A stretch of 63,887 nucleotides of DNA, the filler included, from Ferroacidibacillus organovorans (GTDB lineage: Bacteria > Bacillota > Bacilli > Alicyclobacillales > SLC66), in the NCBI RefSeq assembly GCF_001642725.1. It is 3 parts of 3 records of this genome, joined end to end, with 100 filler letters (N's around TTAATTAATTAA, not from the genome) between each part and the next. Parts side by side here need not be neighbours in the genome. Positions count along the whole stretch, not along the records: positions 23,280 to 45,697 come from NZ_LSUQ01000041.1; 2 more parts are not named here. One strand, written 5' to 3'. The notes below the pieces were generated by a model. The model had not been told where the DNA came from. It did no database searches and was given only the letters and a program-made list of their open reading frames with translations. How positions within the stretch are numbered: position 1 is the first letter of the stretch; every line of letters begins with the position of its first letter. Positions 7,514 to 45,797 of this stretch are shown here, piece after piece. A program made the translations under genes and the position numbers.

Positions 7514-8668
7514 ATGCATGGTGGAAGAGTCTATGAATATGCTGAGCAAAGAGGCGGCGCTCTGGATGAAATTGTAGATTTTAGTGCAAATCTGCATCCT
7601 TTGGGGCCTCCCGAGACTGTCACCCACGCTCTTCAAGTTGCACTTCATCTGGTGCGACACTATCCTGACTCGCGTCACTTGCGCGTGAAAGAGGTTTTGG
7701 CAAAACGCTATGACGTTGCGATGGATCATCTGGTTTGTGGCAATGGGGCGTCAGAGGTCTTGGAATTGCTGTTGCGCGTTCTGGCGCCTCAGCGAACGTG
7801 GATTATGGAACCAGCGTTTCGTGAGTACGAAGCAATCGCCCGCAGAGTTGGGTCGAAAATCGAACGCGTATCGATGATGGCTTTTGGCGACCGATTTTAT
7901 TTTCCGCTCAATCGAATTGTGGAATCGGCGCGCACTGGAGATTGCGTCGTCTTGAATACACCTCATAACCCTTCTGGAATGCACGTTTTAAAAGTCGATG
8001 TGTCGGATGCGGTCAACACTTTATTGGACCACAATGTAGATGTGATCGTCGATGAGTCATTTATCGATTTTTTAGAGAATGAAAAGTCAGAGACTTGGCT
8101 GCGTGAGTCGACGGTGAATCCTCATCTTCACACCATCCGCTCTGCCACAAAGGTGTTTGCCATTCCAGGATTGCGATTCGGGTTTGCCGTCGTTCACCCC
8201 GATGTCGCAAAAAAAATTGAGAGCGATCGCGATGGCTGGAGTGTCAATGTTCTAGCGCAAGAAGCGGCCATCGCCGCGTATCAGGATCGCGCATGGATTC
8301 TGCGGACGCAGCAGTGGCTCGTACAGCAGCATGCTTTTATTCACTCTAGTTGGGGGATGGATGCGCGCATACACGTCTATCCGTTTGCTGTGAATTTCTT
8401 TCTTGTTACGTTCTCACACGCCTCATTAAGTCGATTTATTCAAACTGAATTACACCGAAGCGGATATATTGTGAGAAATTGCGAATCGTTTCATGGATTG
8501 GGTGCATCGCATATGCGCATTGCGATTCGCACAGCAGAAGAAAATTACGCGCTCTGGAATGCGTATTTAAACGCGATGGACGCATATCAAGATCACTCCC
8601 CAATGTCATCATCTAAACGCAGAGGGGAGTCAGCGCATACTGTGGATGATGGAGACCATAAAAAATAA
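7514..8668 (+). CDS. cobD: Threonine-phosphate decarboxylase
   Basis: HGG, DFSANLHPLG, GNGASE, PHNPSG, DESFIDF, SATKVFAIPGLRFG; last gene of cob operon; 3' end overlaps recombinase. Confidence 0.88.
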   Translation: MHGGRVYEYAEQRGGALDEIVDFSANLHPLGPPETVTHALQVALHLVRHYPDSRHLRVKEVLAKRYDVAMDHLVCGNGASEVLELLLRVLAPQRTWIMEPAFREYEAIARRVGSKIERVSMMAFGDRFYFPLNRIVESARTGDCVVLNTPHNPSGMHVLKVDVSDAVNTLLDHNVDVIVDESFIDFLENEKSETWLRESTVNPHLHTIRSATKVFAIPGLRFGFAVVHPDVAKKIESDRDGWSVNVLAQEAAIAAYQDRAWILRTQQWLVQQHAFIHSSWGMDARIHVYPFAVNFFLVTFSHASLSRFIQTELHRSGYIVRNCESFHGLGASHMRIAIRTAEENYALWNAYLNAMDAYQDHSPMSSSKRRGESAHTVDDGDHKK

Positions 8669-10209
8669 ACGTGAACACTGCCGTCGCGATCGATGACCAC
8701 TCGATCAAGCACTTGACGAAGCGCCAGGCGCAGTGTGCTGTCATCGTACGGTGTCGATGGTGTAAATAAGAGTGCTGCACCTAGTGACACCGTGTCTTCT
8801 GAAGAAGTGGGTGCTTGTTCGATCTTTTTTTCGAGAAGGCGGTTCATCTCACTCTGCAATATCCTTTCTTGATCAATGAGGTTTCGCTGACTCTCCTCAA
8901 TGAGCGCAGTGGGGAAGATACCGCGACGAAACGCTTCCAGGTTGCGTTTTTGTTCTTTTCGATTGATAGAGATTTGCATTTTTAACGCTTGCATGCGCTG
9001 TTCACTTCGATCCACCCCTAAAGAGGCGATTTCCCTACGAGACTGTTGGAACTGGAGCCACCCAGAGTCTTCCTGAAATTTCCTGTTTAACACAGCAAAA
9101 ATCATTTCGCTAAGCGTGTCATAATTTGTGGCGCTGTGGTTGTCACACGCTGCCTTGTTGATCCTTTTTACTTTTGAACACACAACATACTTATAGCGCT
9201 CTCGTTCACGTTTTTTGCGCCCTGTGACAATCATGCTTCCTCCACACGATGCGCATCTCAAGAATCCGGCGAGGAGATTGGCGCTTTGTTTGACACTCTT
9301 GTTGCGCGCTTTGAATTTCATGAGATGTTGCGCGAGATCAAAGCGATCTTGACGAATAATGGGTGGATGCGCGTGAGGGATAACGATCCAATCATCCTCG
9401 CTGCGAAATTGAAGACGCTTTACGGGAAGATCAATTCTGCGAGACTTTTCGATGTCATGCATCGTCGTGCGTTTGTGCGCAATAAGTGTGCCTACGTACA
9501 CTTCGTGACGGAGAATGGCGTTTACGGTTGACGCTTGCCAGGCTGTGTTTTTCTGATACTGGTGCTTGAGTGCTGTGGGAACCTGTCGATGATTGAGTGT
9601 GTTTGCAATCTCTTTTGTTCCTTTTCCAGTAAGGTACATATCAAAAATTTCGCGCACGATAGGCGCTGTTTGTGGATCGGGGACAAGCTTTTTCGCACCG
9701 TCTTTCAAATAACCGTAGGGCGTGATGTTTCCGATGTGGCGTCCGCGGCGGGCGGATTGTCGCAGGCCGCGTTGAATCGCTCTTGACATTTCTTTGCTTT
9801 TATAGGCGGCTAACATTGCGTGAACGGTAAAAATCATTTCAGAATTGCGTCCCTCGATGGCAGAATCATAGCCCTCTTCAATACTGATCAAGCGTATTCC
9901 GTATACCTGTTCAAGTCGCTTCTTTGTGTTGAATGCGTCACTCAAGTCGCGGCTGAATCGGGAGATCGCTGTAAACAAAATGACTTCAAATCGCCCAGCC
10001 CGCGCATCAACGAGCATGCGCTGTACTTCATTTCGATGCGTCATCTCAGTCCCTGAAATACCTGCGTCATTATAAATCAGAGACGGATCTGTTTTGAGTT
10101 GAATGCGTTCGGCGTGCTCTTGGCACGTGGCAATCTGATTGGCAGGGGAGTCGCGTTGGGTGTCTGAGTCTGTCGATACGCGAACATAGATCGCGGCCCT
10201 TTTGATCAT
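8593..10209 (-). CDS. Large serine recombinase (candidate gerE-element integrase/excisase)
   Basis: AIYVRVST catalytic motif, ISRFSRD, PYGY, LLAGFLRCASCG zinc ribbon, coiled coil. Confidence 0.95.
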   Translation of the reverse strand: MIKRAAIYVRVSTDSDTQRDSPANQIATCQEHAERIQLKTDPSLIYNDAGISGTEMTHRNEVQRMLVDARAGRFEVILFTAISRFSRDLSDAFNTKKRLEQVYGIRLISIEEGYDSAIEGRNSEMIFTVHAMLAAYKSKEMSRAIQRGLRQSARRGRHIGNITPYGYLKDGAKKLVPDPQTAPIVREIFDMYLTGKGTKEIANTLNHRQVPTALKHQYQKNTAWQASTVNAILRHEVYVGTLIAHKRTTMHDIEKSRRIDLPVKRLQFRSEDDWIVIPHAHPPIIRQDRFDLAQHLMKFKARNKSVKQSANLLAGFLRCASCGGSMIVTGRKKRERERYKYVVCSKVKRINKAACDNHSATNYDTLSEMIFAVLNRKFQEDSGWLQFQQSRREIASLGVDRSEQRMQALKMQISINRKEQKRNLEAFRRGIFPTALIEESQRNLIDQERILQSEMNRLLEKKIEQAPTSSEDTVSLGAALLFTPSTPYDDSTLRLALRQVLDRVVIDRDGSVHVYFLWSPSSTVCADSPLRLDDDIGE

Positions 10210-35517: not shown

Positions 35518-36699
35518 ATGTCCATCACGATGAACGAATTGCGTACAAAGACGGATCCGATCGCAGAGAAGGTGGTTGCGTGGCGACGCTATCTGCATGA
35601 GCATCCGGAGGTGTCGTTTCACGAAGAGAATACGTCCCAATACGTCTACGATCAGTTGTGCGCCGTCGACGGATTAACCGTGACAAGACCCACGAAAACG
35701 AGTGTCATGGCGCGCCTTATCGGTGATCGACCAGGACGAGTGCTCGCGATTCGCGCAGATATGGATGCGCTCCCGATCCTTGAAGAAAACACGTTTGACT
35801 TTGTCTCAAAGAATCCTGGCGCCATGCACGCGTGTGGTCACGACGGCCACACCGCGATGCTGTTGGGCACAGCGACCGTGCTCGCTGGTATGCGCGAACA
35901 TATCGCAGGGGAGATTCGCTTTTTGTTTCAGCATGCGGAGGAACTTTTCCCAGGCGGCGCACAGGAGATGGTCGATGCGGGTGTGCTTGAAGGTGTAGAT
36001 CAGGTGATTGGAACGCACCTCTGGGCGAGTCTGCCTTGCGGTCAGATCGCGATCGCGCCAGGCCCTGTCATGGCGGCACCTGACACGTTTACGATCACGA
36101 TTAAAGGGAAGGGCGGTCACGCTGCACACCCTGACCAGACGGTGGACAGTATCGCGATCGGTGCGCAACTCGTGACGAACTTGCAGCATGTCGTCGCGCG
36201 CAACCGCGATCCGCTCAAGCCAATGGTGCTCTCGGTCACCACGTTTCACGCGGGTACGGCGTTTAACGTCATTCCCGACTCGGCCACTCTATCAGGGACT
36301 GTGCGGACGTTTGACGCGTCCCTTCGCGCAGCCGCGCCGGGCATGATGGAGCGGGTGATCCGCGGTGTGACAGATGCGCACGGCGCGAGCTATGAATTCA
36401 AGTATACGAATGGCTATCACCCTGTCGTGAATGATGCAGCGCTCACTGCCCAATTGAAGGCGGCGTTTGTCGAGCAGTTTGGCGATGTGATCGTTCAGGA
36501 TGCGGTGCCGTCGATGGGTGGCGAAGACTTTTCGGCGTATCAGCAAAAGGTGCCGGGATGCTTCTTTTTTATTGGTGCTGGCAACGTAGAAAAAGGCATC
36601 ATCTATCCGCATCACCACCCGAAGTTTACAGTTGATGAAGACGCGCTTCCGGTCGGCGTTCAGTCGTTTGTGACGGCCGTCTTCGCACTGATGGACTGA
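35518..36699 (+). CDS. M20 amidohydrolase
   Basis: RADMDALP, MHACGHDGH, QHAEE, GGEDF, HHHPKF. Confidence 0.93.
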   Translation: MSITMNELRTKTDPIAEKVVAWRRYLHEHPEVSFHEENTSQYVYDQLCAVDGLTVTRPTKTSVMARLIGDRPGRVLAIRADMDALPILEENTFDFVSKNPGAMHACGHDGHTAMLLGTATVLAGMREHIAGEIRFLFQHAEELFPGGAQEMVDAGVLEGVDQVIGTHLWASLPCGQIAIAPGPVMAAPDTFTITIKGKGGHAAHPDQTVDSIAIGAQLVTNLQHVVARNRDPLKPMVLSVTTFHAGTAFNVIPDSATLSGTVRTFDASLRAAAPGMMERVIRGVTDAHGASYEFKYTNGYHPVVNDAALTAQLKAAFVEQFGDVIVQDAVPSMGGEDFSAYQQKVPGCFFFIGAGNVEKGIIYPHHHPKFTVDEDALPVGVQSFVTAVFALMD

Positions 36700-36843
36700 T
36701 TCGTGCGATGCATCTGTGGGCTTTACCCTTTCCATTCGGAAGGGGTTTTTATTTTTTCAGTTGTGACCTTCTCCGCGTTTATGCGAAACGTTTGCGTGCG
36801 TTCTTGCATCGTATAGAACAGGCGGAAAGAGGTGGAACTGTTG

Positions 36844-37589
36844 TGAATGAGTGGGTCAAGCGGTTCATGGATCTCGCGTCACCGCAACAAAAAACGAAAG
36901 ATACGCAGGCAGCCGCGCAGGCGCCTGAATCTGGACAAGGAACCGCGGATGGTTTGGGTGGGCAAGGGATGCACCCCTCATTTTCGCCGTTTGCTACGCA
37001 GGCAGGCGCGACGCCTTTTGCGGCGGGCACTTCGCGGGGTGCGTCGGAACGCCCCTCTGAGGCGAAGACTGCATCCCCGTCGCTCTCGACTATGATTCGC
37101 GAGCGATTGCAAGGATTTTTGCCGAAGAAAGCGGCAGCGCTTTGGCAGGGTGGGTCAAATGGAAAGGGGGAAGGATCGCTCAGACCTGGCGGCTACTCAC
37201 ACCCTCCCCAGATGGGAATGAGGACTGCGGCTCCAGCGCCGCACAATGTTGGAAACGATTTGGCAAACCGGGGAATGTTTGGTTCTCAGCCATCGCAGAT
37301 GCCACCGATGCAGATGCGCGTGCCTGCATCGCGCTTCGCAGATCCTTTTATGCCGCATCCTGGAATGGCGCAACGGAGGACGCCTGTACCTACTCGCTTC
37401 TCTTCGATGCAAGGTCATGGGTTTCAAACGCCAACCGTACGTCCCTATCCGCATGGCCCAGGGATGAATCGATCCGTGAGGTCGCGCATGCCTGGCTATC
37501 CGAATTTTCGGCAATCTTCATCGTTCATCGATCCGTACACAGGGCAGCCGCGCAGACCGCAGCCGCCGATGCCGCCCGGATTCTTCTGA
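36844..37589 (+). CDS. Pro/Gly/Gln/Met-rich low-complexity protein
   Basis: GAGGTGG RBS before GTG 36844; long open frame with disordered composition. Confidence 0.65.
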
Positions 37590-37723
37590 GAGATACGAAA
37601 AACCTGTCGCGCGCGAGGCCTATTGATTTGAAATGGGTGTATGTCAGGGTGCATTTGAACCAAGAGCTACCCAGAGCATCCGCATACGTTGAAGAATGAG
37701 GAATGAAAGGAGGTTTACGCGTA

Positions 37724-38045
37724 ATGTGCACGTATGGTCAATGTCAAAGGGCGGTTGGACAGTGGGTGCAGTTCTCGACACCGTGGGGGGCTCACCATGG
37801 GATTGTGCGTCAGGTGACACAGCAAGGTGTTTTGATGTCGGTGCCACGTACTTATGCGCCGCAGGGACTTGTGAATGGAATGAATTTCTCAGGCAAATCG
37901 GATGAAGAGCGCTTGGATCTCGCGCTCGCCGCATACGGATATGGTCCGGGGATGGGTGGACGTCCCGGTTACGGGGGTGGCTACGGCGCGCCCGGCTATG
38001 GTTGGTGGGGCGGCGGTTGGTGGTGGTGGTGGTTAGCGTTCGCTA
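37724..38045 (+). pseudogene. 5' part of a Gly/Tyr/Trp-rich spore-coat-like gene, probably interrupted at about 38040
   Basis: AAAGGAGG RBS; MCTYGQC...GYGGGYGAPGYGWWGGGWWWWWLAFA, then an abrupt AT-rich run-on antisense to the recombinase 3' end (ORF formally to 38125). Confidence 0.6.
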
Positions 38046-38053
38046 GTTATCTC

Positions 38054-39520
38054 TTATACACCCCCATGAAAATGAATGAGAATGCGATCTGGATAAACGG
38101 TGATTTCTTTTATGATCGTGCGTAGCAGTTCTTTTCTTTCCTGTACCGTTGCAATCCCCCACGTCGCGCGAAATGAGCCTAGAATGGTTTTAAGCGTGGC
38201 GAGATCCAGGGATTTGGCATTCATTTGTTCCAATGCATGAATCTTCTCGGCGAATAGAGTTTCCTTGCTGCGGAGTTCGTTCAAACGATCTTTAAGGACA
38301 TTTGATTCAATATCACCATTTTCAAATGCATTCATCCATCGATTTTTCCGTGAAGTGATTTTTGATATTTCATTACGTAGAGCATCCATTTCAGCCTGAT
38401 CATCTGATCTTAATGTAAACGTCGACATATCACGACTTAAATCCTGATGATACTGTTCTAAGTGTGTCAAAACAGCATTTTCAAGGTGACTCTCTTTTTG
38501 CCGAGGCATATCACAAAGTCCTGAATGGATTCTCTCGACGCATGTATAATAGCGTCTAGGCTCACTTTCCAATTTATTCTTCTTGTATCGCGTATCTCCT
38601 GACATTGAATAGCCACATTTACCACAGCGCAGGATTCCTGTCAACGAATAGGTGCCCGTACCACTTCGACTCGGCATTGTTTTGCGTTTACTTCTTAGTT
38701 CCTGTGCACGATTAAAATTCTCTAGACTAAGAATTGCTTCGTGATTCCCCTCTTCGATCATTGAATTCGTTTGTCTCCTTCCCTTTAGATCTCTGTATCC
38801 ATAACGCACCATGCCGCAGTAAAGCGGGTTTTGTAGAACATATTTTAGATTGTTCAATGTCCATCTTTTATTGGACGCAAGCTGTGGATGCGTAGGATCA
38901 TTGAGCCACTTCAATATCTTGGGTGTGCCGCTTCCTGCCAGATAGCGATCGTAAATTTCTTTAACGATTGCTGCTTCAGCATGATTGATTTTCAGATTTC
39001 CATTGTTGTAATCATATCCAAAAGGTCGATGACCCCCTGACCATTTCCCTTGCCGAGTCATTTCAATCTGTCCCATTTTAGTGCGTTCAGCGAGATTTTC
39101 ACGTTCCCACTGTGCCATCGCCCCGACGAGTGTGATAAAGAGTCGGCCGATCGCCGTTGTCGTATCATACACTTCTGTGGCGCTCCGAAATTTCGTTTGA
39201 TGGCGATCGAAGTAGTCTAGAAGCGTATGGAGATCAGAAACAGAGCGTGTTAGTCGATCTAATTTATAGACAAGCACAATTTTATGATCAGAATGGTCAG
39301 CTTTTAAATCATTGAGCAAGCGCTTTAACTCAGGCCGATCCATGTTTTTGGCGCTGACGCCTTCTTCGATGTAGCTATCTTGGATGACCCAGTCTTGCGA
39401 TAATGCATAGGCCTTTAACCTCTCACGCTGCGCGTCAATCGAATATCCCTCATCAGCCTGTTCATCCGTCGAAACACGTATATAAATACGCGCAAACCAT
39501 GTTTCGCTCATGGCGATCAC
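38054..39520 (-). CDS. Large serine recombinase (boundary integrase)
   Basis: IYIRVSTDEQ, YKLDRLTRS, AQWERE, PFGY, LTGILRCGKCG. Confidence 0.96.
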   Translation of the reverse strand: MIAMSETWFARIYIRVSTDEQADEGYSIDAQRERLKAYALSQDWVIQDSYIEEGVSAKNMDRPELKRLLNDLKADHSDHKIVLVYKLDRLTRSVSDLHTLLDYFDRHQTKFRSATEVYDTTTAIGRLFITLVGAMAQWERENLAERTKMGQIEMTRQGKWSGGHRPFGYDYNNGNLKINHAEAAIVKEIYDRYLAGSGTPKILKWLNDPTHPQLASNKRWTLNNLKYVLQNPLYCGMVRYGYRDLKGRRQTNSMIEEGNHEAILSLENFNRAQELRSKRKTMPSRSGTGTYSLTGILRCGKCGYSMSGDTRYKKNKLESEPRRYYTCVERIHSGLCDMPRQKESHLENAVLTHLEQYHQDLSRDMSTFTLRSDDQAEMDALRNEISKITSRKNRWMNAFENGDIESNVLKDRLNELRSKETLFAEKIHALEQMNAKSLDLATLKTILGSFRATWGIATVQERKELLRTIIKEITVYPDRILIHFHGGV

Positions 39521-39561
39521 CCTAATTTTGAAGTTGGCCTCTGAAAAATAAATAGGACAGA

Positions 39562-39590
39562 CACAGAAAAAGTGATCGCAGCATACGATA
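39562..39590 (+). promoter_or_regulatory. Sigma-K type promoter
   Basis: CACA (39562-39565) - 16 nt - CATACGATA (39582-39590) fits the B. subtilis sigma-K consensus ACA-N16-CATANNNTA. Confidence 0.65.
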
Positions 39591-39618
39591 CGTTAATGCC
39601 TGAACCTTAGTGGGGAGC

Positions 39619-39786
39619 GTGATCGTGTTGGATAACAATACATGTATATATCTTGTTATCCAGGCGAATTCCCCCTCGGAAGAAGCACTTATGCGTTTCA
39701 ACGAAGAAATTCGCCGCATTATCGAACGCGCCATTCAAGATGGGCGAATTGCTACCCATGATCTTATTGATTCCAAAACGCCGTAG
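39619..39786 (+). CDS. 55-aa protein, candidate recombination directionality factor
   Basis: GGGGAG RBS; MIVLDNNTCIYLVIQANSPSEEALMRFNEEIRRIIERAIQDGRIATHDLIDSKTP; divergent from integrase; below ORF-track cutoff. Confidence 0.6.
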   Translation: MIVLDNNTCIYLVIQANSPSEEALMRFNEEIRRIIERAIQDGRIATHDLIDSKTP

Positions 39787-39932
39787 TTATACTAAAGATT
39801 TATAATTCCGCCAACTACGTTGGACAAGCTTATAAAAAACAATGCCCAAAAGGATTTCCTCTTACCTATCTTAGTGGCTGACGATTTGAGATACGACAGG
39901 AAATCCCTAACTTTACTTGGGCAAAAGTCCAC

Positions 39933-39972
39933 ATAAAAAAGCAGATGCCATGGATGATGATGCGGCATCTGC
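39933..39972 (-). terminator. Terminator downstream of XRE gene
   Basis: GCAGATGCC / GGCATCTGC stem with T tract on the minus strand. Confidence 0.65.
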
Positions 39973-40072
39973 GTGATGAATCTTTTAAAATCGTGATTTC
40001 ATAGGGTGAAACGGGAAGATAACGATAGGTTAAACCTCATACGGGTGTGAAGATCATTCGTGAACGTGTTCA

Positions 40073-40300
40073 TCATGATTCGGATGGGGGCATTTGTTCG
40101 AAACTAATTTTCAGCATGACGTCGAGTGCGGTGGTGATTTTTTCAAGGCTCTCCAAGCTTACATTACCGATTCCACGTTCAATCATACCGACATATCGTT
40201 TTGAAAGTCCTGACGCTTGTGCCAAGGTCTCTTGGCTCATGCGCTGTTTGGTGCGGAGTTGACGAATTCTCATCCCCACTTCTCGACATAAATCACTCAG
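40073..40300 (-). CDS. XRE family helix-turn-helix regulator (possible CTG start)
   Basis: IRQLR...MSQETLA...YVGMIERG..NVSL; GAGGTG RBS 7 nt before CTG at 40300. Confidence 0.88.
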   Translation of the reverse strand: MSDLCREVGMRIRQLRTKQRMSQETLAQASGLSKRYVGMIERGIGNVSLESLEKITTALDVMLKISFEQMPPSES

Positions 40301-40439
40301 ACGGGTTCACCTCGATTTATATGGATGGATCTATGGTAAAAGCTTATCATCTGTCTCTTAAAAATTCATGCATGACGGATAACTATAGTGCATATACCGA
40401 AAATCCTTTGGACACCATGTACGCCAAGGGAGTGAAGGG

Positions 40440-40604
40440 ATGGAGAGGAATCGAATTCGTGTTCGCTCGATTCAATATGTGTACGATCCAAAGGCCGGTC
40501 GTCTGTGGCTGGATGTGTTAGCGCAAGCGCTCTATCGCTCGTGTCAAGATCATAAAATGGATACAAAGCACGAGCCCAACGAGGATGTGAATCCATGCGA
40601 ATGA
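40440..40604 (+). CDS. 54-aa protein coupled to tandem recombinases
   Basis: GGGAG RBS; MERNRIRVRSIQYVYDPKAGRLWLDVLAQALYRSCQDHKMDTKHEPNEDVNPCE; stop overlaps the recombinase start region (ATGA 40601-40604). Confidence 0.6.
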   Translation: MERNRIRVRSIQYVYDPKAGRLWLDVLAQALYRSCQDHKMDTKHEPNEDVNPCE

Positions 40605-42130
40605 CGGTGGCGTATTACCGAAGTTCTCTCGAACAACAGGAAAATTCCGTTCCGATGCAAAAGGACAACGCAAAACTTTATGCACAAAAGCACGGAATGA
40701 CCCTTCAAGATCACTACGACGATGAGGGGAAGTCGGCACGAAAAAAATCAGAGATCGAACGGCCCGCGATGCATCGATTGCGACAGGACATCCGCTCTAA
40801 TTTAATTGGGACGATTATTGTCTATAAACGGGATCGTCTGGCGCGAAGAGCGAGTGAGTACATGGAATTTTATCGTCTGTGCCGCAAATTTGACGTGAAG
40901 ATCATTTTTACGTCTGGAAAGGAATACCCGGTGTTTTACTCACCGTTCGGGGAATTCATTGAACTCATTTACGCGGGAATTATTGAGCGTGAGGCGGAAG
41001 TAATCGTTGAGCGTCTACGTGAAACGCAAATCACGAATTTCGTGAACAAGAAGACGGTGGGAAATCTACCGTATGGCCTGGTGGCGATTGAAGGGAAACA
41101 AGATAAACCGGAGATTCATTTTCAGTCAGACGAGGTAAAGGAAGAGATCAAAGGGATTTATTCGGACTTTCTCCAGTGGTCGACTACGCGAGGGGAGCAA
41201 AAATTCTCTGCCTTTGTTCAGCTGCAAAATGAGAGACATCCGAGACGGGAGCGCTTGGAATCCGAGGAGGAGGAGATAGAATACGATGAAGGAGGCGCTA
41301 AGGAACCAAACGCCAGATGGACCGATACCAATTTGCGTGGTCTTTTGACGAATTCACTCTACATGGGAAAACATCGCAAAACATGGGAGGATCAAATGTA
41401 CGAAGTGGATCGGCCTGAGTGCGCGATCATTTCTCCTGAAGCATGGGAAGCGACGAATCAAGCGATGAAGCCGTTTCTTGCGGTTCAACATGAAACCAAG
41501 AAACGAGAATTTGTTCTTGAGGGATTGATCGTTTGTGAATTTTGCAAACATCCTCTCGTGGGGAGAACATCGTGGCGAAAACAGGAACCGATGGATGGGT
41601 ATTATTGTCCCACCAAAACGTGTCCTGTGCGTATCTCCGCAACGAAATGTGAGGAAAAAATTGATGAAGAAGTCGTGGGGTTTCTGTCCATCCTCCTAAA
41701 GGAGAATGGGGATGCATTGTATCGGGAGGTGATGGCAGAGGAACGCAGGCGAATTAAAGCGGAGATGGAGAAGCTTCAACATCAGCGGACGATTCTACAG
41801 ACGCGTTTAAAGAAGGATGTATCGCAGTATATGCAAACGCGCGTGAGTATGCCTGAGATTTTTCAAACGAAAACGAATCTCGACAATCTCCATCATACGA
41901 TGCACAGACTGGAGGCAGAACTTCGTTCATTGCATGCGTTTCCGCTGGGGACAAAGCGGCGAAACATCCGCATTCAAGATCTAAAGATCGAGCTGAAGCA
42001 AGGGTCGGCCGTGCGTCGGCGAGAACTACTCGCGGATCTCCTTTTGGAAGTGCGGGTCAGCAAAAATACGATCGAGGCTCTTGTGTTTCGCCACCCATTT
42101 CAAAAGGTGGTGTCCCATGTCTCTTCATGA
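40595..42130 (+). CDS. Large serine recombinase (first of tandem pair)
   Basis: VAYYRSS, YKRDRLAR, LPYG, LEGLIVCEFC...YYCPTKTC, coiled coil. Confidence 0.9.
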   Translation: MRMTVAYYRSSLEQQENSVPMQKDNAKLYAQKHGMTLQDHYDDEGKSARKKSEIERPAMHRLRQDIRSNLIGTIIVYKRDRLARRASEYMEFYRLCRKFDVKIIFTSGKEYPVFYSPFGEFIELIYAGIIEREAEVIVERLRETQITNFVNKKTVGNLPYGLVAIEGKQDKPEIHFQSDEVKEEIKGIYSDFLQWSTTRGEQKFSAFVQLQNERHPRRERLESEEEEIEYDEGGAKEPNARWTDTNLRGLLTNSLYMGKHRKTWEDQMYEVDRPECAIISPEAWEATNQAMKPFLAVQHETKKREFVLEGLIVCEFCKHPLVGRTSWRKQEPMDGYYCPTKTCPVRISATKCEEKIDEEVVGFLSILLKENGDALYREVMAEERRRIKAEMEKLQHQRTILQTRLKKDVSQYMQTRVSMPEIFQTKTNLDNLHHTMHRLEAELRSLHAFPLGTKRRNIRIQDLKIELKQGSAVRRRELLADLLLEVRVSKNTIEALVFRHPFQKVVSHVSS

Positions 42131-43643
42131 AATCATGGAACGTTTGAGGCAGCCGGATACGCTTTTGCGTGCCGCGTTTTATGGCCGTCATTCGACCAAG
42201 AATCAAGAAATGATGATGCAAGAGAATACCGCCGAGCGATTTTGCAAGAAGTATGGTTGTGAAATCGTGGAAAAATACCTCGATCCGGATGTATCGGCTA
42301 CGAAAGTGAAAATGACCCAACGCAAAGCGTTGTTGCGGATGATCAATGATGCGAGTGATGGCAAATTTGATGTCATCCTTGTGTACAGTGACAGTCGTTT
42401 GGCGCGTGATCCGATTGAACATGCTCAAATCCGCATCGCTTTGCGGGGCATCCCTGTCTTTCTGTGTGACACCGAAACCTTGTACAATCCCAAGAATGTG
42501 GAAATTTTAACGCAATTGATCCGCGATGGCGTTTCCAAATTTGAAGTGGATCAGACCTCGGAACGAACCCGGGATACGTTTCTTTACATGGTGAAACACG
42601 GTGAAGCGATCAATGGCAGGTTGCCCTACGGGTATGTAAAACGGGAGGGTCGTTTTGTTATTGAATCTTTTCAACAAGCCGAACACATTCGGTCCATTTT
42701 TATGTGGTATTCAAACGGCGACGGATTCTCGGCGATCGCGAAACGCCTGGGGTGGCTCAAAGCGGATCGCGTCACACCAAATAAAGAGCGGGTCAAGTCG
42801 ATTGTCTTGAATCCCTTTTATGCCGGTTATCGTAGCATGGACAAAGTCAAAAAGAAGGCGCGCATGAGCTTTCAACCGCTCGCGCAGTGGATCATGGGTT
42901 CCGATCCTCACATCGAGCCGGTACTTTCGTTTGAAGAGTGGAGAACGTGCTACGATCTGTATGAGAAAAAACAGAAAAGGGAAATCGCGCCGAAGACTTT
43001 TAAGACACCGTTTCTATTGGCGGGGCTTCTCGTCTGTGGAGATTGCAGGAAAAGAGGGATGGAAAACTTTTTGCGCGGCCAAAATCGCCAAACACGCTCA
43101 ACATTTGGAAGGACAGGATCTCGGTATTATGAATGTCCGGAATGCAGACTCTGCATGGACATGGGGGCATTGCATCAAATTCTGATCGATGACGTTTTTC
43201 ATCCGTGGGTCTCGAAAAATGAGCGGCAGTGGGAGACGGCGGTCGAACGGGTGAAAGAAAAGATCGATCACGAGAAAGCGGCGTTGGCGGCGGCGATCGA
43301 ACATGCAGAAATCAAGATCGTAAAGGATCAATTGGAGCACGAGGTTGCGCGCGATCACCAGAAAGGTCTCGATAATGCCAGTGAACTGTGGGGTGTGATG
43401 GACGAATACTGCCGTGTGCTCAAGGAACAGATGGACAAAACGCGAGAAGAGCAGGATGAATTAAAGCAGATGCAGCGACGCCTAAACGCGTGGGTCACCG
43501 ATGAGAGCGCACTGCGAGAGGTGCGCTTGGATCTCTTGAACGAACAAGATTTCCGCAGGCTGACGCTTGCGTTGATTACCGAGGTAGTGGCGACATCGGT
43601 TGAGGATCAAACGATTGAACTGGATGTCGTAGGTCGATGGTAG
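42117..43643 (+). CDS. Large serine recombinase (second of tandem pair)
   Basis: AAFYGRHST, SRLARD, LPYGY, LNPFYAG, LLAGLLVCGDC...YECPEC; overlaps upstream gene by 14 nt. Confidence 0.9.
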   Translation: MSLHEIMERLRQPDTLLRAAFYGRHSTKNQEMMMQENTAERFCKKYGCEIVEKYLDPDVSATKVKMTQRKALLRMINDASDGKFDVILVYSDSRLARDPIEHAQIRIALRGIPVFLCDTETLYNPKNVEILTQLIRDGVSKFEVDQTSERTRDTFLYMVKHGEAINGRLPYGYVKREGRFVIESFQQAEHIRSIFMWYSNGDGFSAIAKRLGWLKADRVTPNKERVKSIVLNPFYAGYRSMDKVKKKARMSFQPLAQWIMGSDPHIEPVLSFEEWRTCYDLYEKKQKREIAPKTFKTPFLLAGLLVCGDCRKRGMENFLRGQNRQTRSTFGRTGSRYYECPECRLCMDMGALHQILIDDVFHPWVSKNERQWETAVERVKEKIDHEKAALAAAIEHAEIKIVKDQLEHEVARDHQKGLDNASELWGVMDEYCRVLKEQMDKTREEQDELKQMQRRLNAWVTDESALREVRLDLLNEQDFRRLTLALITEVVATSVEDQTIELDVVGRW

Positions 43644-43858
43644 GGTATATTCTGCGATGATGTTGAATCGGGGGGCAGAATGAGAGTGGGGGTGTTCTGA
43701 GAATAGATCGTTTGTAAATGACGAGAGGTTTTCGTGTCATTTTAATGAAAATGGAGAGAATACGCCGCCATTTCTTCTTCAGCTTTGTTGCCTTGGAGAA
43801 CGGCAATTCATACTAGTGTAACGATGAATAGCCATGCAGCACTCAGGTTGCACCGCTA

Positions 43859-43884
43859 TTGCAGATAAGCACCCGATAGTTGAA
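43859..43884 (-). repeat. Candidate recombination site, downstream end of nuclease cassette
   Basis: Minus strand TTCAACTAT-CGGGTGCT-TATCTGCAA; same TT-N7-CGGG-N11-AA geometry as 45310-45335. Confidence 0.65.
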
Positions 43885-43886
43885 TA

Positions 43887-43912
43887 ACAGCAGGGGCAAT
43901 TTGCTCTTGCTG
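43887..43912 (-). terminator. Hairpin closing the nuclease cassette
   Basis: ACAGCAAGAGCAA / TTGCCCCTGCTGT stem on the minus strand directly abutting the 26-bp site. Confidence 0.65.
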
Positions 43913-43996
43913 TGTAGCTGAAAAATTACGGTTTGGTCACCACCAACATTATTTCGATGGCATTAATTGTAATTTCCTTACATACGAAACCCTCAG

Positions 43997-45208
43997 TCAG
44001 TCTGACAACAAAATCGGTAAGCGACGATCACGTGACATTAAACGAAGTACGCTCATATCCAAGACAAACGCAGACTTGTCCTGTATAACAGTTTCATGAA
44101 GCAGACCTTTTTCTAAAGCCAAGTCCATAATTCGTTTTCCACCGACAGCCTTCGTGATTGTTGCTCGACTGACTGGACGATTATTTCTCTTATCAACTAA
44201 TAAGCCTTCATCATCAGCATATTGATTCAGTATTATGTGTCCAGCATGTCGGAGGGCTCGTTTGAACGTAACCTCAGCAATTCTTTCCTGAGCCTCCTCA
44301 TCTTTGGTCATCATCGCTTTGACTTTGTTTTCAACCCTAGGCGATCTCTGTTTTTGAAGAATTCCAATAAATTTTTCAGCGAACTCATCTAAGTCGAACA
44401 CGGTCTTGATGTCGGCAATCGTTAAATACACGAAACGGTTAAACCTCGAAAAGAACACCCCTATTTTGCCTATCTCAACGGGGAAATCTCTATCGAACTT
44501 CGATAGTATGTAGTAACCGATAAGTTGCCGCATGTGCTCAGCTTGATAACCTAAACGTCGTACCGTCTTTATATCGACCAACATGGTATCAATAACAAAA
44601 TCCGCATCTGCTCCACCGACCAACGCGGACATGTCCCCGAATGTTGGATTGTACAATATGCGATTTTCCTTCTTAAAAAAAGCTTCAACATCCATCGTTT
44701 TGTCTGCAATTTGAGACAAATCATGCACTTCACGGGAGTCTACATCGTAACCGTTTTGACGGACGTATCCTGACCTGTAGTAAGCCTCCATGTAGCCCAA
44801 AAATACACAAGCCTCATACAGCCCGCGTTCATCCACATTGTCTCCCCGACTGTACTGCCTTCTGATTTCCCTGCTTATATTGTACTTTTCTGTTATCTCA
44901 GGTAATGAATCTTCCATTCCAAATTGTGTGAGCCCCAATATAAGACGACGCATCGCCTGGTCCGCGACCACGACGGGTTCTTCATAGTCTTGATTGATTC
45001 GTTGCAAATAAGCACGTAGCCAGTAATCATAAGCCATGCCGACGTTACCCGCGTTTGCACCTTGAACCAAATCTGCTACAGGGGGTATACCTTTTGGAAA
45101 GGGGGCACCATCATCATTCAGGGTTTTACATAGACCTTTGAAATTCGGCAGCGTCGAGAACAAAGATTTAACTTCGGCGTTATCACTTAACATGCTTGTC
45201 AACGACAA
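43997..45208 (-). CDS. Hypothetical protein with PD-(D/E)XK nuclease-like motif
   Basis: GGADADFVIDTMLVDIKT...QLIGY; GGAGG RBS before TTG 45208; AT-rich. Confidence 0.7.
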   Translation of the reverse strand: MSLTSMLSDNAEVKSLFSTLPNFKGLCKTLNDDGAPFPKGIPPVADLVQGANAGNVGMAYDYWLRAYLQRINQDYEEPVVVADQAMRRLILGLTQFGMEDSLPEITEKYNISREIRRQYSRGDNVDERGLYEACVFLGYMEAYYRSGYVRQNGYDVDSREVHDLSQIADKTMDVEAFFKKENRILYNPTFGDMSALVGGADADFVIDTMLVDIKTVRRLGYQAEHMRQLIGYYILSKFDRDFPVEIGKIGVFFSRFNRFVYLTIADIKTVFDLDEFAEKFIGILQKQRSPRVENKVKAMMTKDEEAQERIAEVTFKRALRHAGHIILNQYADDEGLLVDKRNNRPVSRATITKAVGGKRIMDLALEKGLLHETVIQDKSAFVLDMSVLRLMSRDRRLPILLSD

Positions 45209-45309
45209 TTTGTCCACCTCCAATATTCCGTTAACAATATAACAACGTGTCTAGGATATCATAACTGACCCACCAGAACCTCGATTTCCCGTCAAAAAAC
45301 GTATTCATC

Positions 45310-45335
45310 TTCAGCTAACCTGCCCGAATGCGCAA
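45310..45335 (-). repeat. Candidate recombination site, upstream end of nuclease cassette
   Basis: Minus strand TTGCGCATT-CGGGCAGG-TTAGCTGAA. Confidence 0.65.
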
Positions 45336-45697
45336 GAGCCACCGTGGTGACAATCATATACGGGTTAAATGATGGTGATTTTGCAATTGCTCAACCAATG
45401 GCTGAAAACCAACGGGGACAAATTTGCCGATGTTTGTGTATCTAAAATTACAGTTGGTCGCGTATTTCAGAACGGACCGTTTACAGCTCGCGTGACAAAC
45501 TGAAATCCTTTCGTGTCTTGCAACTGGCGCTGCAACTCGAAACGAAGAAGGAACACACGATAGAATCTATATTCGGCACTTTTCTGAAGAATCCCTTTGC
45601 AAGCAAGAGACGAAAGGGCGAGTGTCGTTTTGGTACGGATTTTTTCATTTATCGATTTTGGACGGGACATGAGGATTTTAAGGAACATGGACAGGCC

Positions 45698-45797
45698 NNN
45701 NNNNNNNNNNNNNNNNNNNNNNNNNNNNNNNNNNNNNNNNNTTAATTAATTAANNNNNNNNNNNNNNNNNNNNNNNNNNNNNNNNNNNNNNNNNNNN
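45698..45797. other. Artificial contig linker
   Basis: N runs flanking TTAATTAATTAA. Confidence 0.97.

Follow-up and report, generated by a model that had tools for sequence, protein, structure and literature searches.

Can a small gene that is cut nine codons before its stop by a mobile element be made whole again, and does its host do this as part of sporulation? The question is raised by a stretch of DNA from Ferroacidibacillus organovorans (assembly GCF_001642725.1), in which the coding sequence of a lineage-restricted protein breaks off beside the 3′ end of a large serine recombinase (LSR) gene. The stretch analyzed, referred to here as the window, is 63,887 nucleotides long and consists of contigs C40 (1-23179), C41 (23280-45697) and C51 (from 45798), linked by N/TTAATTAATTAA filler. 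The missing end of the gene lies on a further contig, C25, at the other side of an integrated element. The split, its attachment (att) sites, the recombinase and the recurrence of the insertion at the same codon in other genomes are established at the level of sequence. Three further propositions, that the element is excised in development, that a small gene next to the recombinase encodes a recombination directionality factor (RDF) and that the split gene has a role in sporulation, are taken jointly to be probable, with considerable room for doubt. In what follows, G000 denotes this genome, G001 a genome of the same genus, and other G numbers genomes of the same order. The features at the center of the argument are as follows.

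37724 to 38044, plus strand: 5′ piece of the split gene, 107 of 116 codons, with start codon ATG at 37724; protein P0001 corresponds to this piece plus WIFALAFLW
38034 to 38045, no strand: predicted attL core GCG-TT-CGC within the palindrome TAGCG-TT-CGCTA (TAGCGTTCGCTA), where homology to the empty-site flank of G001 ends
38054 to 39520, minus strand: LSR1, a large serine recombinase of 488 amino acids with Resolvase (7e-42), Recombinase (1.8e-19) and Zn_ribbon_recom (4e-14) domains
38041 to 45697, no strand: left 7.66 kb of the element, of low GC content, continuing on C25:122-10882
45699 to 45797, no strand: artificial contig linker, N runs around TTAATTAATTAA, which is not biology and marks the end of C41

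The 5′ piece is preceded by a ribosome binding site, AAAGGAGG, at 37706-37713. Its product begins MCTYGQC, continues through a Gly/Tyr tract into WWGGGWWWWWLAFA, and is interrupted after WWWWWLAFA at GCG-TT-CGC, the TT being positions 38039-38040. Intact orthologues end WWWWWLAFAWIF[AW]LAFLW followed by a stop codon, and the split open reading frame (ORF) instead reads LAFASYLLYTPM. In the integrated state the frame runs past the junction as SYLLYTPMKMNENAIWINGDFFYDRA to a stop at 38125, and the occupied allele encodes a foreign extension of 26 amino acids after the 107-residue piece. GC content drops at about 38040, from 0.578 (37001-38000) to 0.425 (38001-39000), and then stays at 0.42-0.49 to the end of the contig. 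An earlier note on this DNA had described the ORF from 37724 with its Gly/Tyr tract and Trp run, the switch to AT-rich DNA at about 38040, the palindrome, and an antisense serine integrase with its stop at 38054; all of these descriptions hold. Comparison with the native C-terminus likewise agrees with the note, as orthologues end WIF[AW]LAFLW and none continue SYLLYTPM.

Where, then, is the rest of the gene? A six-frame scan of the host genome finds the tail twice, on C25 and on C34. At C25:10883-10918 there is a matching junction joined to WIFALAFLW and a stop codon, followed by a terminator and chromosomal flank. Over 239 nt this flank shows 91% identity with the sequence that follows the gene in G001, and the left flank of the G001 empty site matches C41 up to the core. 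Furthermore, the last 121 bases of C41 are exactly the first 121 bases of C25; only five exact end overlaps exist between contigs of this assembly (45, 70, 73, 121 and 138 nt). Because this exact 121-nt overlap is shared by no third contig, the element is considered to span both contigs, occupying C41 from 14762 onward and C25:122-10882, with a predicted total of about 18.4 kb. The element-side arms of the two junctions form an inverted repeat that matches at 18 of 27 positions when centered on TT and at 6-12 of 27 when the center is shifted by 1-4 nt. Since these arms, one from each contig, are dyad-symmetric about TT, the two junctions appear to belong to one attP, and the assignment of TT as the crossover dinucleotide is supported. 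The stop codon of LSR1 lies 10 nt from the core, and residues R15, V16 and S17 are invariant in a 13-sequence LSR alignment; LSR1 is the predicted cognate recombinase that goes with this att site. The earlier note had read the junction as an attL with TT as its central dinucleotide and had placed a short hydrophobic C-terminal tail beyond the contig break, and each of these expectations is supported.

The second tail copy is a separate observation. At C34:19893-19976, FAWIFALAFLW with its stop codon and a terminator shows 84-86% identity, over 85 nt, with the copies on C25 and in G001. Ahead of it lies an arm resembling the element-side arm with a 1-nt offset, there is low-GC DNA on both sides, and no second 5′ piece is found in this genome to partner it. 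The copy looks like an orphan attR-like relic of another element.

Does the site also exist in an empty form? G001 carries an uninterrupted site with a 1-nt deletion, one A missing left of the core (GGTT-GCGTTCGC; L002:1800-1860), which shifts the frame of the last 12 codons; the same form occurs in the protein database as P0002. Database protein P0001 (116 amino acids) matches the 5′ piece plus WIFALAFLW letter for letter and comes from 5 contigs, the longest of 136 kb, with the split 133-residue form on 2 contigs. Four public sequencing runs (X1, X5, X6 and X7) were compared as contigs over 36000-40000; X1 may be the source sample, X6 and X7 are metagenomes, and data at contig level are blind to rare forms. 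In X6 and X7 the 5′ piece is joined directly to the tail, as GTGGATTTTCGCGCTCGCATTT and (T)GCGTGGATTTTCGCGCTCGCATTT, from 38040/38043. The Phe codon at this joint is TTT in X7, matching the C25 junction, and TTC in X6. The 3′ piece called for by the earlier note and an empty site are thus both present, and precise excision is predicted to restore the intact 116-codon frame.

An element divided between two contigs, in a window made of joined contigs, might be an assembly artefact, with a chimeric junction or with C41 and C25 not adjacent at all. This explanation is extremely unlikely: not only is the overlap exact and unique and the attP symmetry built from two contigs, but X5 contigs, which are independent, include the element side and are interrupted at the same point (38017-38040; word depth 246 in chromosomal sequence, 141 in element sequence) and X1 contigs bridge the junction. 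Seven other genomes, moreover, show both junctions on one contig.

Recurrence was assessed by searching LSR1 against 64 genomes of the order (E <= 1e-80), which yielded 23 loci in 16 genomes. Fourteen of these loci share 45% identity or more with LSR1; in 13 of the 14, the recombinase gene ends no more than about 170 nt from one of the pieces of the split gene. The recombinase is antisense to the 5′ piece in G000, G007, G014 and G043 and in sense orientation, adjoining the tail, in G025, G031, G032, G033, G035, G044, G045, G054 and G056; the G031 contig stops inside the core. The fourteenth locus, in G063, has an internal stop and, like the nine more divergent LSR loci, maps elsewhere. The site is occupied in 13 of the 57 genomes that bear the gene family, across two families and nine genera. 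Carriers include Alicyclobacillus sp. SP_1, A. hesperidum DSM 12489, A. tengchongensis, A. suci, A. fastidiosus DSM 17978, Alicyclobacillus sp. ALC3 and metagenome-assembled genomes from hot springs. The elements with both junctions on one contig measure about 4.0, 5.1, 5.9, 8.2, 8.5, 18 and 43 kb; the junctions are on separate contigs in four genomes, and the tail of G043 was not found within 60 kb downstream. The elements of 4-6 kb still hold the LSR and the small gene described below.

The occurrence of two orientations has a simple counterpart in the core, which is palindromic save for its center, so that the two orientations read as TT or AA from the recombinase gene. In serine integrases such as those of Bxb1 and phiC31, the central dinucleotide alone sets polarity. 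The relation between a TT or AA center and element orientation fits this rule.

Two further observations concern these elements and their recombinases. By eye, the minimal elements carry a polysaccharide-deacetylase-like gene in G054 and a nitric-oxide-synthase-like gene in G044 (L026:1395-2825 and L103:3894-5099). LSR1 relatives of 38-42% identity (L089, L094, L095 and L096, in G042, G035, G044 and G045) share another conserved sequence after their stop codons, starting GTTTGCCC(A/G)AT(G/C)A(T/C)TTCC, which suggests that a sister recombinase lineage has a second conserved target gene.

What kind of protein is being split? The intact protein of 116 amino acids is rich in Gly, Tyr and Trp and has a hydrophobic tail. 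The structure model contains a beta domain at residues 1-45 (predicted local distance difference test score, pLDDT, about 80), a helix at residues 60-71, a disordered Gly/Tyr stretch and a C-terminal helix at residues 97-115. In this model the insertion cuts the middle of the C-terminal helix, at residue 107. Relatives of the 107-residue piece are found in 38 of 41 related genomes and, across the order, in 57 of 64. A profile made from the N-terminal domain retrieves 32 representative clusters (E <= 0.001) among 1.84 billion proteins. Members turned up in Alicyclobacillus, its relatives and Aneurinibacillus only, all of them spore-former lineages. A search of the ESM Atlas with the split gene returned only clusters of hypothetical proteins. 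No report of the family as a target of rearrangement was found in the full-text literature, a search with supplements and subscription journals outside its scope, in agreement with the earlier note.

Separately, a small hydrophobic gene upstream in A. sacchari was suspected to be YjcZ-like, for which NCBIfam gave no support. In G014 (C37; L106:15408-16926), an LSR 40% identical to LSR1 adjoins a paralogue fragment that covers only the first ~37 residues of the family. The match holds an internal TGA, and the locus could be either a relic or another insertion site within the family.

If the gene were regularly rejoined, both of its pieces should carry the marks of selection. In G044 and G045 the whole locus, from one flank through tail, element and 5′ piece to the other flank, is collinear at 82-83% nucleotide identity; the element is therefore older than the split of these species. 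For this pair the ratio of non-synonymous to synonymous substitution rates (dN/dS) comes to 0.127 in the 5′ piece, 0.165 in the LSR and 0.306 in the small gene. Among the 11 tail codons compared there are 3 synonymous changes and 0 non-synonymous ones. A second collinear pair, G007 and G014 (about 94.5%), has a recombinase dN/dS of 0.18. All 12 separated tails (12/12) are in the intact frame; 11 read WIF[AW]LAFLW, with synonymous codon variation and with an extra final W in two, and that of G033 reads SIFLLAFLF. The pattern in tail and 5′ piece is what a regularly rejoined gene would show.

The same data bear on a different reading, in which the element is a DNA switch: the occupied state would give a soluble, truncated protein and the excised state a membrane-anchored one, with a trigger that need not be sporulation. 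The position of the cut in the middle of the predicted helix suits such a switch, as does the purifying selection on the 5′ piece while it is split. When the nine other 5′ pieces are read through their junctions, four stop immediately after LAFA or LAFP and three within four more codons (seven of nine), which also accords with it; the remaining two, from G007 and G014a, read on further past the junction. However, the foreign extension differs between elements and the truncated form is putative, and a switch of this kind is considered very unlikely.

The preferred reading, excision in development, draws on a small gene that stands divergent from LSR1 and on promoter-like boxes upstream of both this gene and the split gene.

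39619 to 39786, plus strand: small conserved gene, about 53-55 amino acids, with an NxPS motif, divergent from LSR1; start codon GTG at 39619 or 39625
39582 to 39590, plus strand: −10-like box CATACGATA (CATAnnnT), 5′ of the small divergent gene
37683 to 37691, plus strand: −10-like box CATACGTTG upstream of the split gene (CATACGTT at 37683-37690), resembling the sigma-E/K type of the B. subtilis consensus

Seven elements hold an ORF of 48-68 amino acids, divergent from the recombinase, in which a helix comes after the NxPS motif. With these seven as input, a profile search adds G043 (7e-16), G025 (5e-9) and G056 (4e-5), for a total of 10 of the 13 elements. The seven small partner proteins match no Pfam family. 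In the nine clear members examined (G056 was left out of this count), CATAnnnT is present in all nine, 46-85 nt before the NxPS codon and just 5′ of the ribosome binding site; the boxes are CATACGATA, CATACGTTA (three times), CATACCATC (twice), CATAGGGTA, CATACGTTG and CATATGATG. The genome-wide background of CATAnnnT is 0.0006 per nt per strand. Its position, size and promoter likeness make the small gene a candidate RDF.

The box upstream of the split gene, which the earlier note had pointed out as a mother-cell-type −10 at 37683, is present as CATACGTT. Upstream regions of 56 orthologues were reduced to 39 by dropping those more than 80% identical, and 10 of the 39 contain a forward CATAnnnT, with 0 on the reverse strand. 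Shuffled versions of these upstream regions give a mean of 3.4 boxes and a maximum of 10 in 1000 shuffles, and the upstream background is 6.8% of 2047 long ORFs. As evidence for sporulation the CATACGTT box is circumstantial. The host encodes SpoIVA, SpoIIID, SpoIIM and DpaA with scores above the family cut-offs and is therefore counted as an endospore former, and SpoIIP (PF07454) was not found in this genome, which is 96.8% complete. CATAnnnT occurs upstream of three of these four genes, spoIIID (CATACGCTA), spoIVA (CATATCTTG) and dpaA (CATAGGATG); the spoIIM upstream region reads CATACACG. It is upstream of neither of two SpoIID-like host genes.

Because of these sigma-E/K-like boxes, and by analogy to the gin, skin and SPbeta elements, we infer that excision is specific to sporulation. 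In the proposed mechanism, the small divergent gene (39619-39786) would encode the RDF and would be transcribed from a mother-cell sigma-E/K-type promoter. During sporulation the RDF would then make LSR1 recombine attL with attR in the mother cell, excising the element. Excision would rejoin the split gene, itself predicted to encode a spore-envelope or membrane protein expressed in the mother cell, and the spore would retain the element, as with gin, skin and SPbeta.

How well does this mechanism stand beside the view that the element is an ordinary integrative one? On that view the conserved 3′ end of the gene is a favored attB, as a tRNA gene or comK is elsewhere, excision serves transfer only, and the gene either is put out of action or can do without its last nine residues. 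The insertion point is at the very 3′ end of its target, LSR1 shares about 40% identity with integrases of Anoxybacillus and Geobacillus phages, and the CRISPR-Cas9 and nuclease-like cargo is typical of mobile defense islands. Several further results count against developmental excision, and some of them speak directly for an ordinary element. Occupied and empty alleles coexist among near-identical strains and samples, as for any mobile element, and the frameshift in G001 means that the tail may be dispensable there. A truncated protein with nine codons fewer might still work, which alone would explain the selection on the 5′ piece, and the count for selection on the tail is based on 3 substitutions. 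A spore-coat or other sporulation role for the split gene is putative: its named members are all annotated as hypothetical proteins (10 of the 32 representative clusters were looked up), it matches no Pfam or NCBIfam family, and Foldseek searches of the PDB with its model gave no match at E <= 0.001 and only weak Sm/KOW-like rows.

The regulatory and strain data contribute to the same side of the argument. The profile does not find the small gene in the complete element of G032 or in the partial loci of G035 and G031, and the split-gene box is absent from most orthologue upstream regions. CATAnnnT, taken here as the sigma-E/K −10, is the consensus of B. subtilis, and the −35 regions show no obvious fit. 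Contigs of X1 show the occupied form only, and no attB or attP contig is present in the host's own assembly; rare forms would be invisible in contigs.

An ordinary element would nevertheless have to accommodate a split locus that has been inherited vertically through about 18% divergence with the LSR, the small gene and both pieces intact, and tail changes in G044/G045 that are synonymous only. It would also have to accommodate elements shrunken to 4-6 kb that keep the LSR and the small gene, and a sigma-E/K-like box before the small gene in 9/9 members examined. Weighing these points, we regard the ordinary integrative element as a real but rather unlikely alternative, and developmental excision with a dedicated RDF remains the probable reading.

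The remaining genes of the element on C41, beyond the small gene, are as follows.

40073 to 40279, minus strand: Xre-type helix-turn-helix (HTH) regulator (HTH_3, 7.5e-14; also matching control-protein models)
40595 to 42130, plus strand: LSR2, second serine recombinase and first of an overlapping pair, from domain search
42081 to 43643, plus strand: LSR3, third serine recombinase, from domain search, overlapping LSR2
43997 to 45223, minus strand: PD-(D/E)XK-like protein of 408 amino acids (PADLOC PDC-S61, 4.1e-10; RTasPDDEXK, 2.6e-07) with no Pfam family

The three serine recombinases are arranged as a same-strand overlapping pair, LSR2/LSR3, with LSR1 apart, and the PD-(D/E)XK-like protein is a possible defense gene. 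The part of the element on C25 encodes Cas9 (1117 amino acids; PADLOC 1.1e-191), Cas1 and Cas2 and contains an array of 46.5 units, each 66 nt long and including a 36-nt repeat; the CRISPR locus is putatively of type II-C. C25 also holds an rve-type insertion sequence copy, 94.6% identical to a copy on C47, and a 66-nt element arm ahead of attR. A PHROGs search for phage genes gave only integrase and regulator matches among 8 element proteins, with the C25 ORFs beyond Cas9, Cas1, Cas2 and the transposase partly scanned.

Other recombinase sequences lie near the site or elsewhere in the window. A 3′ remnant of an LSR3-like recombinase gene is found directly past the terminator, at C25:10982-11238 and at L002:1917-2529 in G001. 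It matches window positions 43267-43870 at 84-89% and has the same start point in both same-genus genomes. Low-GC DNA with APH and GNAT genes follows the remnant to about C25:18500, as older element debris adjoining the site. Another large serine recombinase of 538 amino acids is encoded at 8593-10209 on the minus strand of the window; its 3′ end overlaps an aminotransferase ORF (7514-8668, plus strand), and it sits at the start of a lower-GC stretch. This locus is considered an old resident because it is collinear at 76-80% in G001.

A bolder version of developmental excision can be formulated from the same material, in which the element is a domesticated, vertically inherited switch that would both toggle the protein between soluble and tail-anchored forms and remove the CRISPR-Cas9 locus from the mother-cell chromosome at sporulation, in either orientation by way of the TT/AA center. 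We consider this extended proposal unlikely.

The locus is of interest for several reasons. If the preferred reading is true, the lineage-restricted tail-anchored protein would be a likely spore-envelope component in Alicyclobacillus, a group relevant to juice spoilage. The elements form a natural series from 43 kb to 4 kb with a common recombination unit, and the present one is a case of a CRISPR-Cas9 locus carried on a gene-intervening element. In addition, the 13 orthologous serine integrases, with defined attB, attL and attR sites and a candidate directionality factor, could serve as recombination tools.

How does this element compare with those already known to interrupt sporulation genes? 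By gene organization, the closest known system is gin, which interrupts gerE in Bacillus cereus ATCC 10987 and is rearranged by GirC with GirX. The published account gives gin three serine recombinases together with a restriction-modification cargo, a 9-bp core and an RDF of 42 amino acids, and no phage genes (PMC5595907). The present element resembles gin in having one adjacent same-strand recombinase pair (girAB there, LSR2/LSR3 here) and a separate recombinase, which drives the gene rearrangement in gin and is represented here by LSR1. Both lack detected phage genes, carry defense cargo, have a GC content below that of the host, and split a small gene at a short core of about 9 bp with inverted repeats. 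The RDF is likewise very small in both, 42 amino acids for GirX and about 55 for the candidate here. The two differ in host, which here belongs to the Alicyclobacillales, in cargo (CRISPR-Cas9 versus restriction-modification) and in target, a known regulator in gin as opposed to a lineage-restricted, predicted tail-anchored protein cut nine codons from its end. Furthermore, excision, its timing and RDF function are proven for gin, whereas here they are proposed.

The element can also be compared with two elements of Bacillus subtilis (PMC4191935), namely SPbeta in spsM (SprA/SprB) and skin in sigK (SpoIVCA). In each case an LSR lies at a junction inside a gene, and decayed relatives keep only the recombination unit. 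SprB has 58 amino acids, and its sigma-E/K promoter is perfect at −10 but imperfect at −35 (PMC4191935). Like SprB, the partner gene here is a small accessory gene with a mother-cell-type −10, in our case by the B. subtilis consensus. SPbeta and skin are prophages or remnants in known sporulation genes, in contrast to the present element, where no phage gene was detected among the 8 proteins scanned.

Within the same bacterial group as the host, the MMB025 prophage occupies sigK of Alicyclobacillus acidoterrestris and is called the first prophage-sporulation link in Alicyclobacillus (PMC13141910). Its target sigK, its 105-kb infectious phage genome and its 4-nt core TCTC are all unlike the element described here, and the split-gene family goes unmentioned in the available portion of that report. 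Taken together, these comparisons indicate that the kind of element is already known, namely the gin/skin/SPbeta type. If its excision is developmental, a new target gene, a new family of recombinase and partner, and a new bacterial order join the few known examples of genes that the mother cell reassembles during sporulation by rearranging its DNA.

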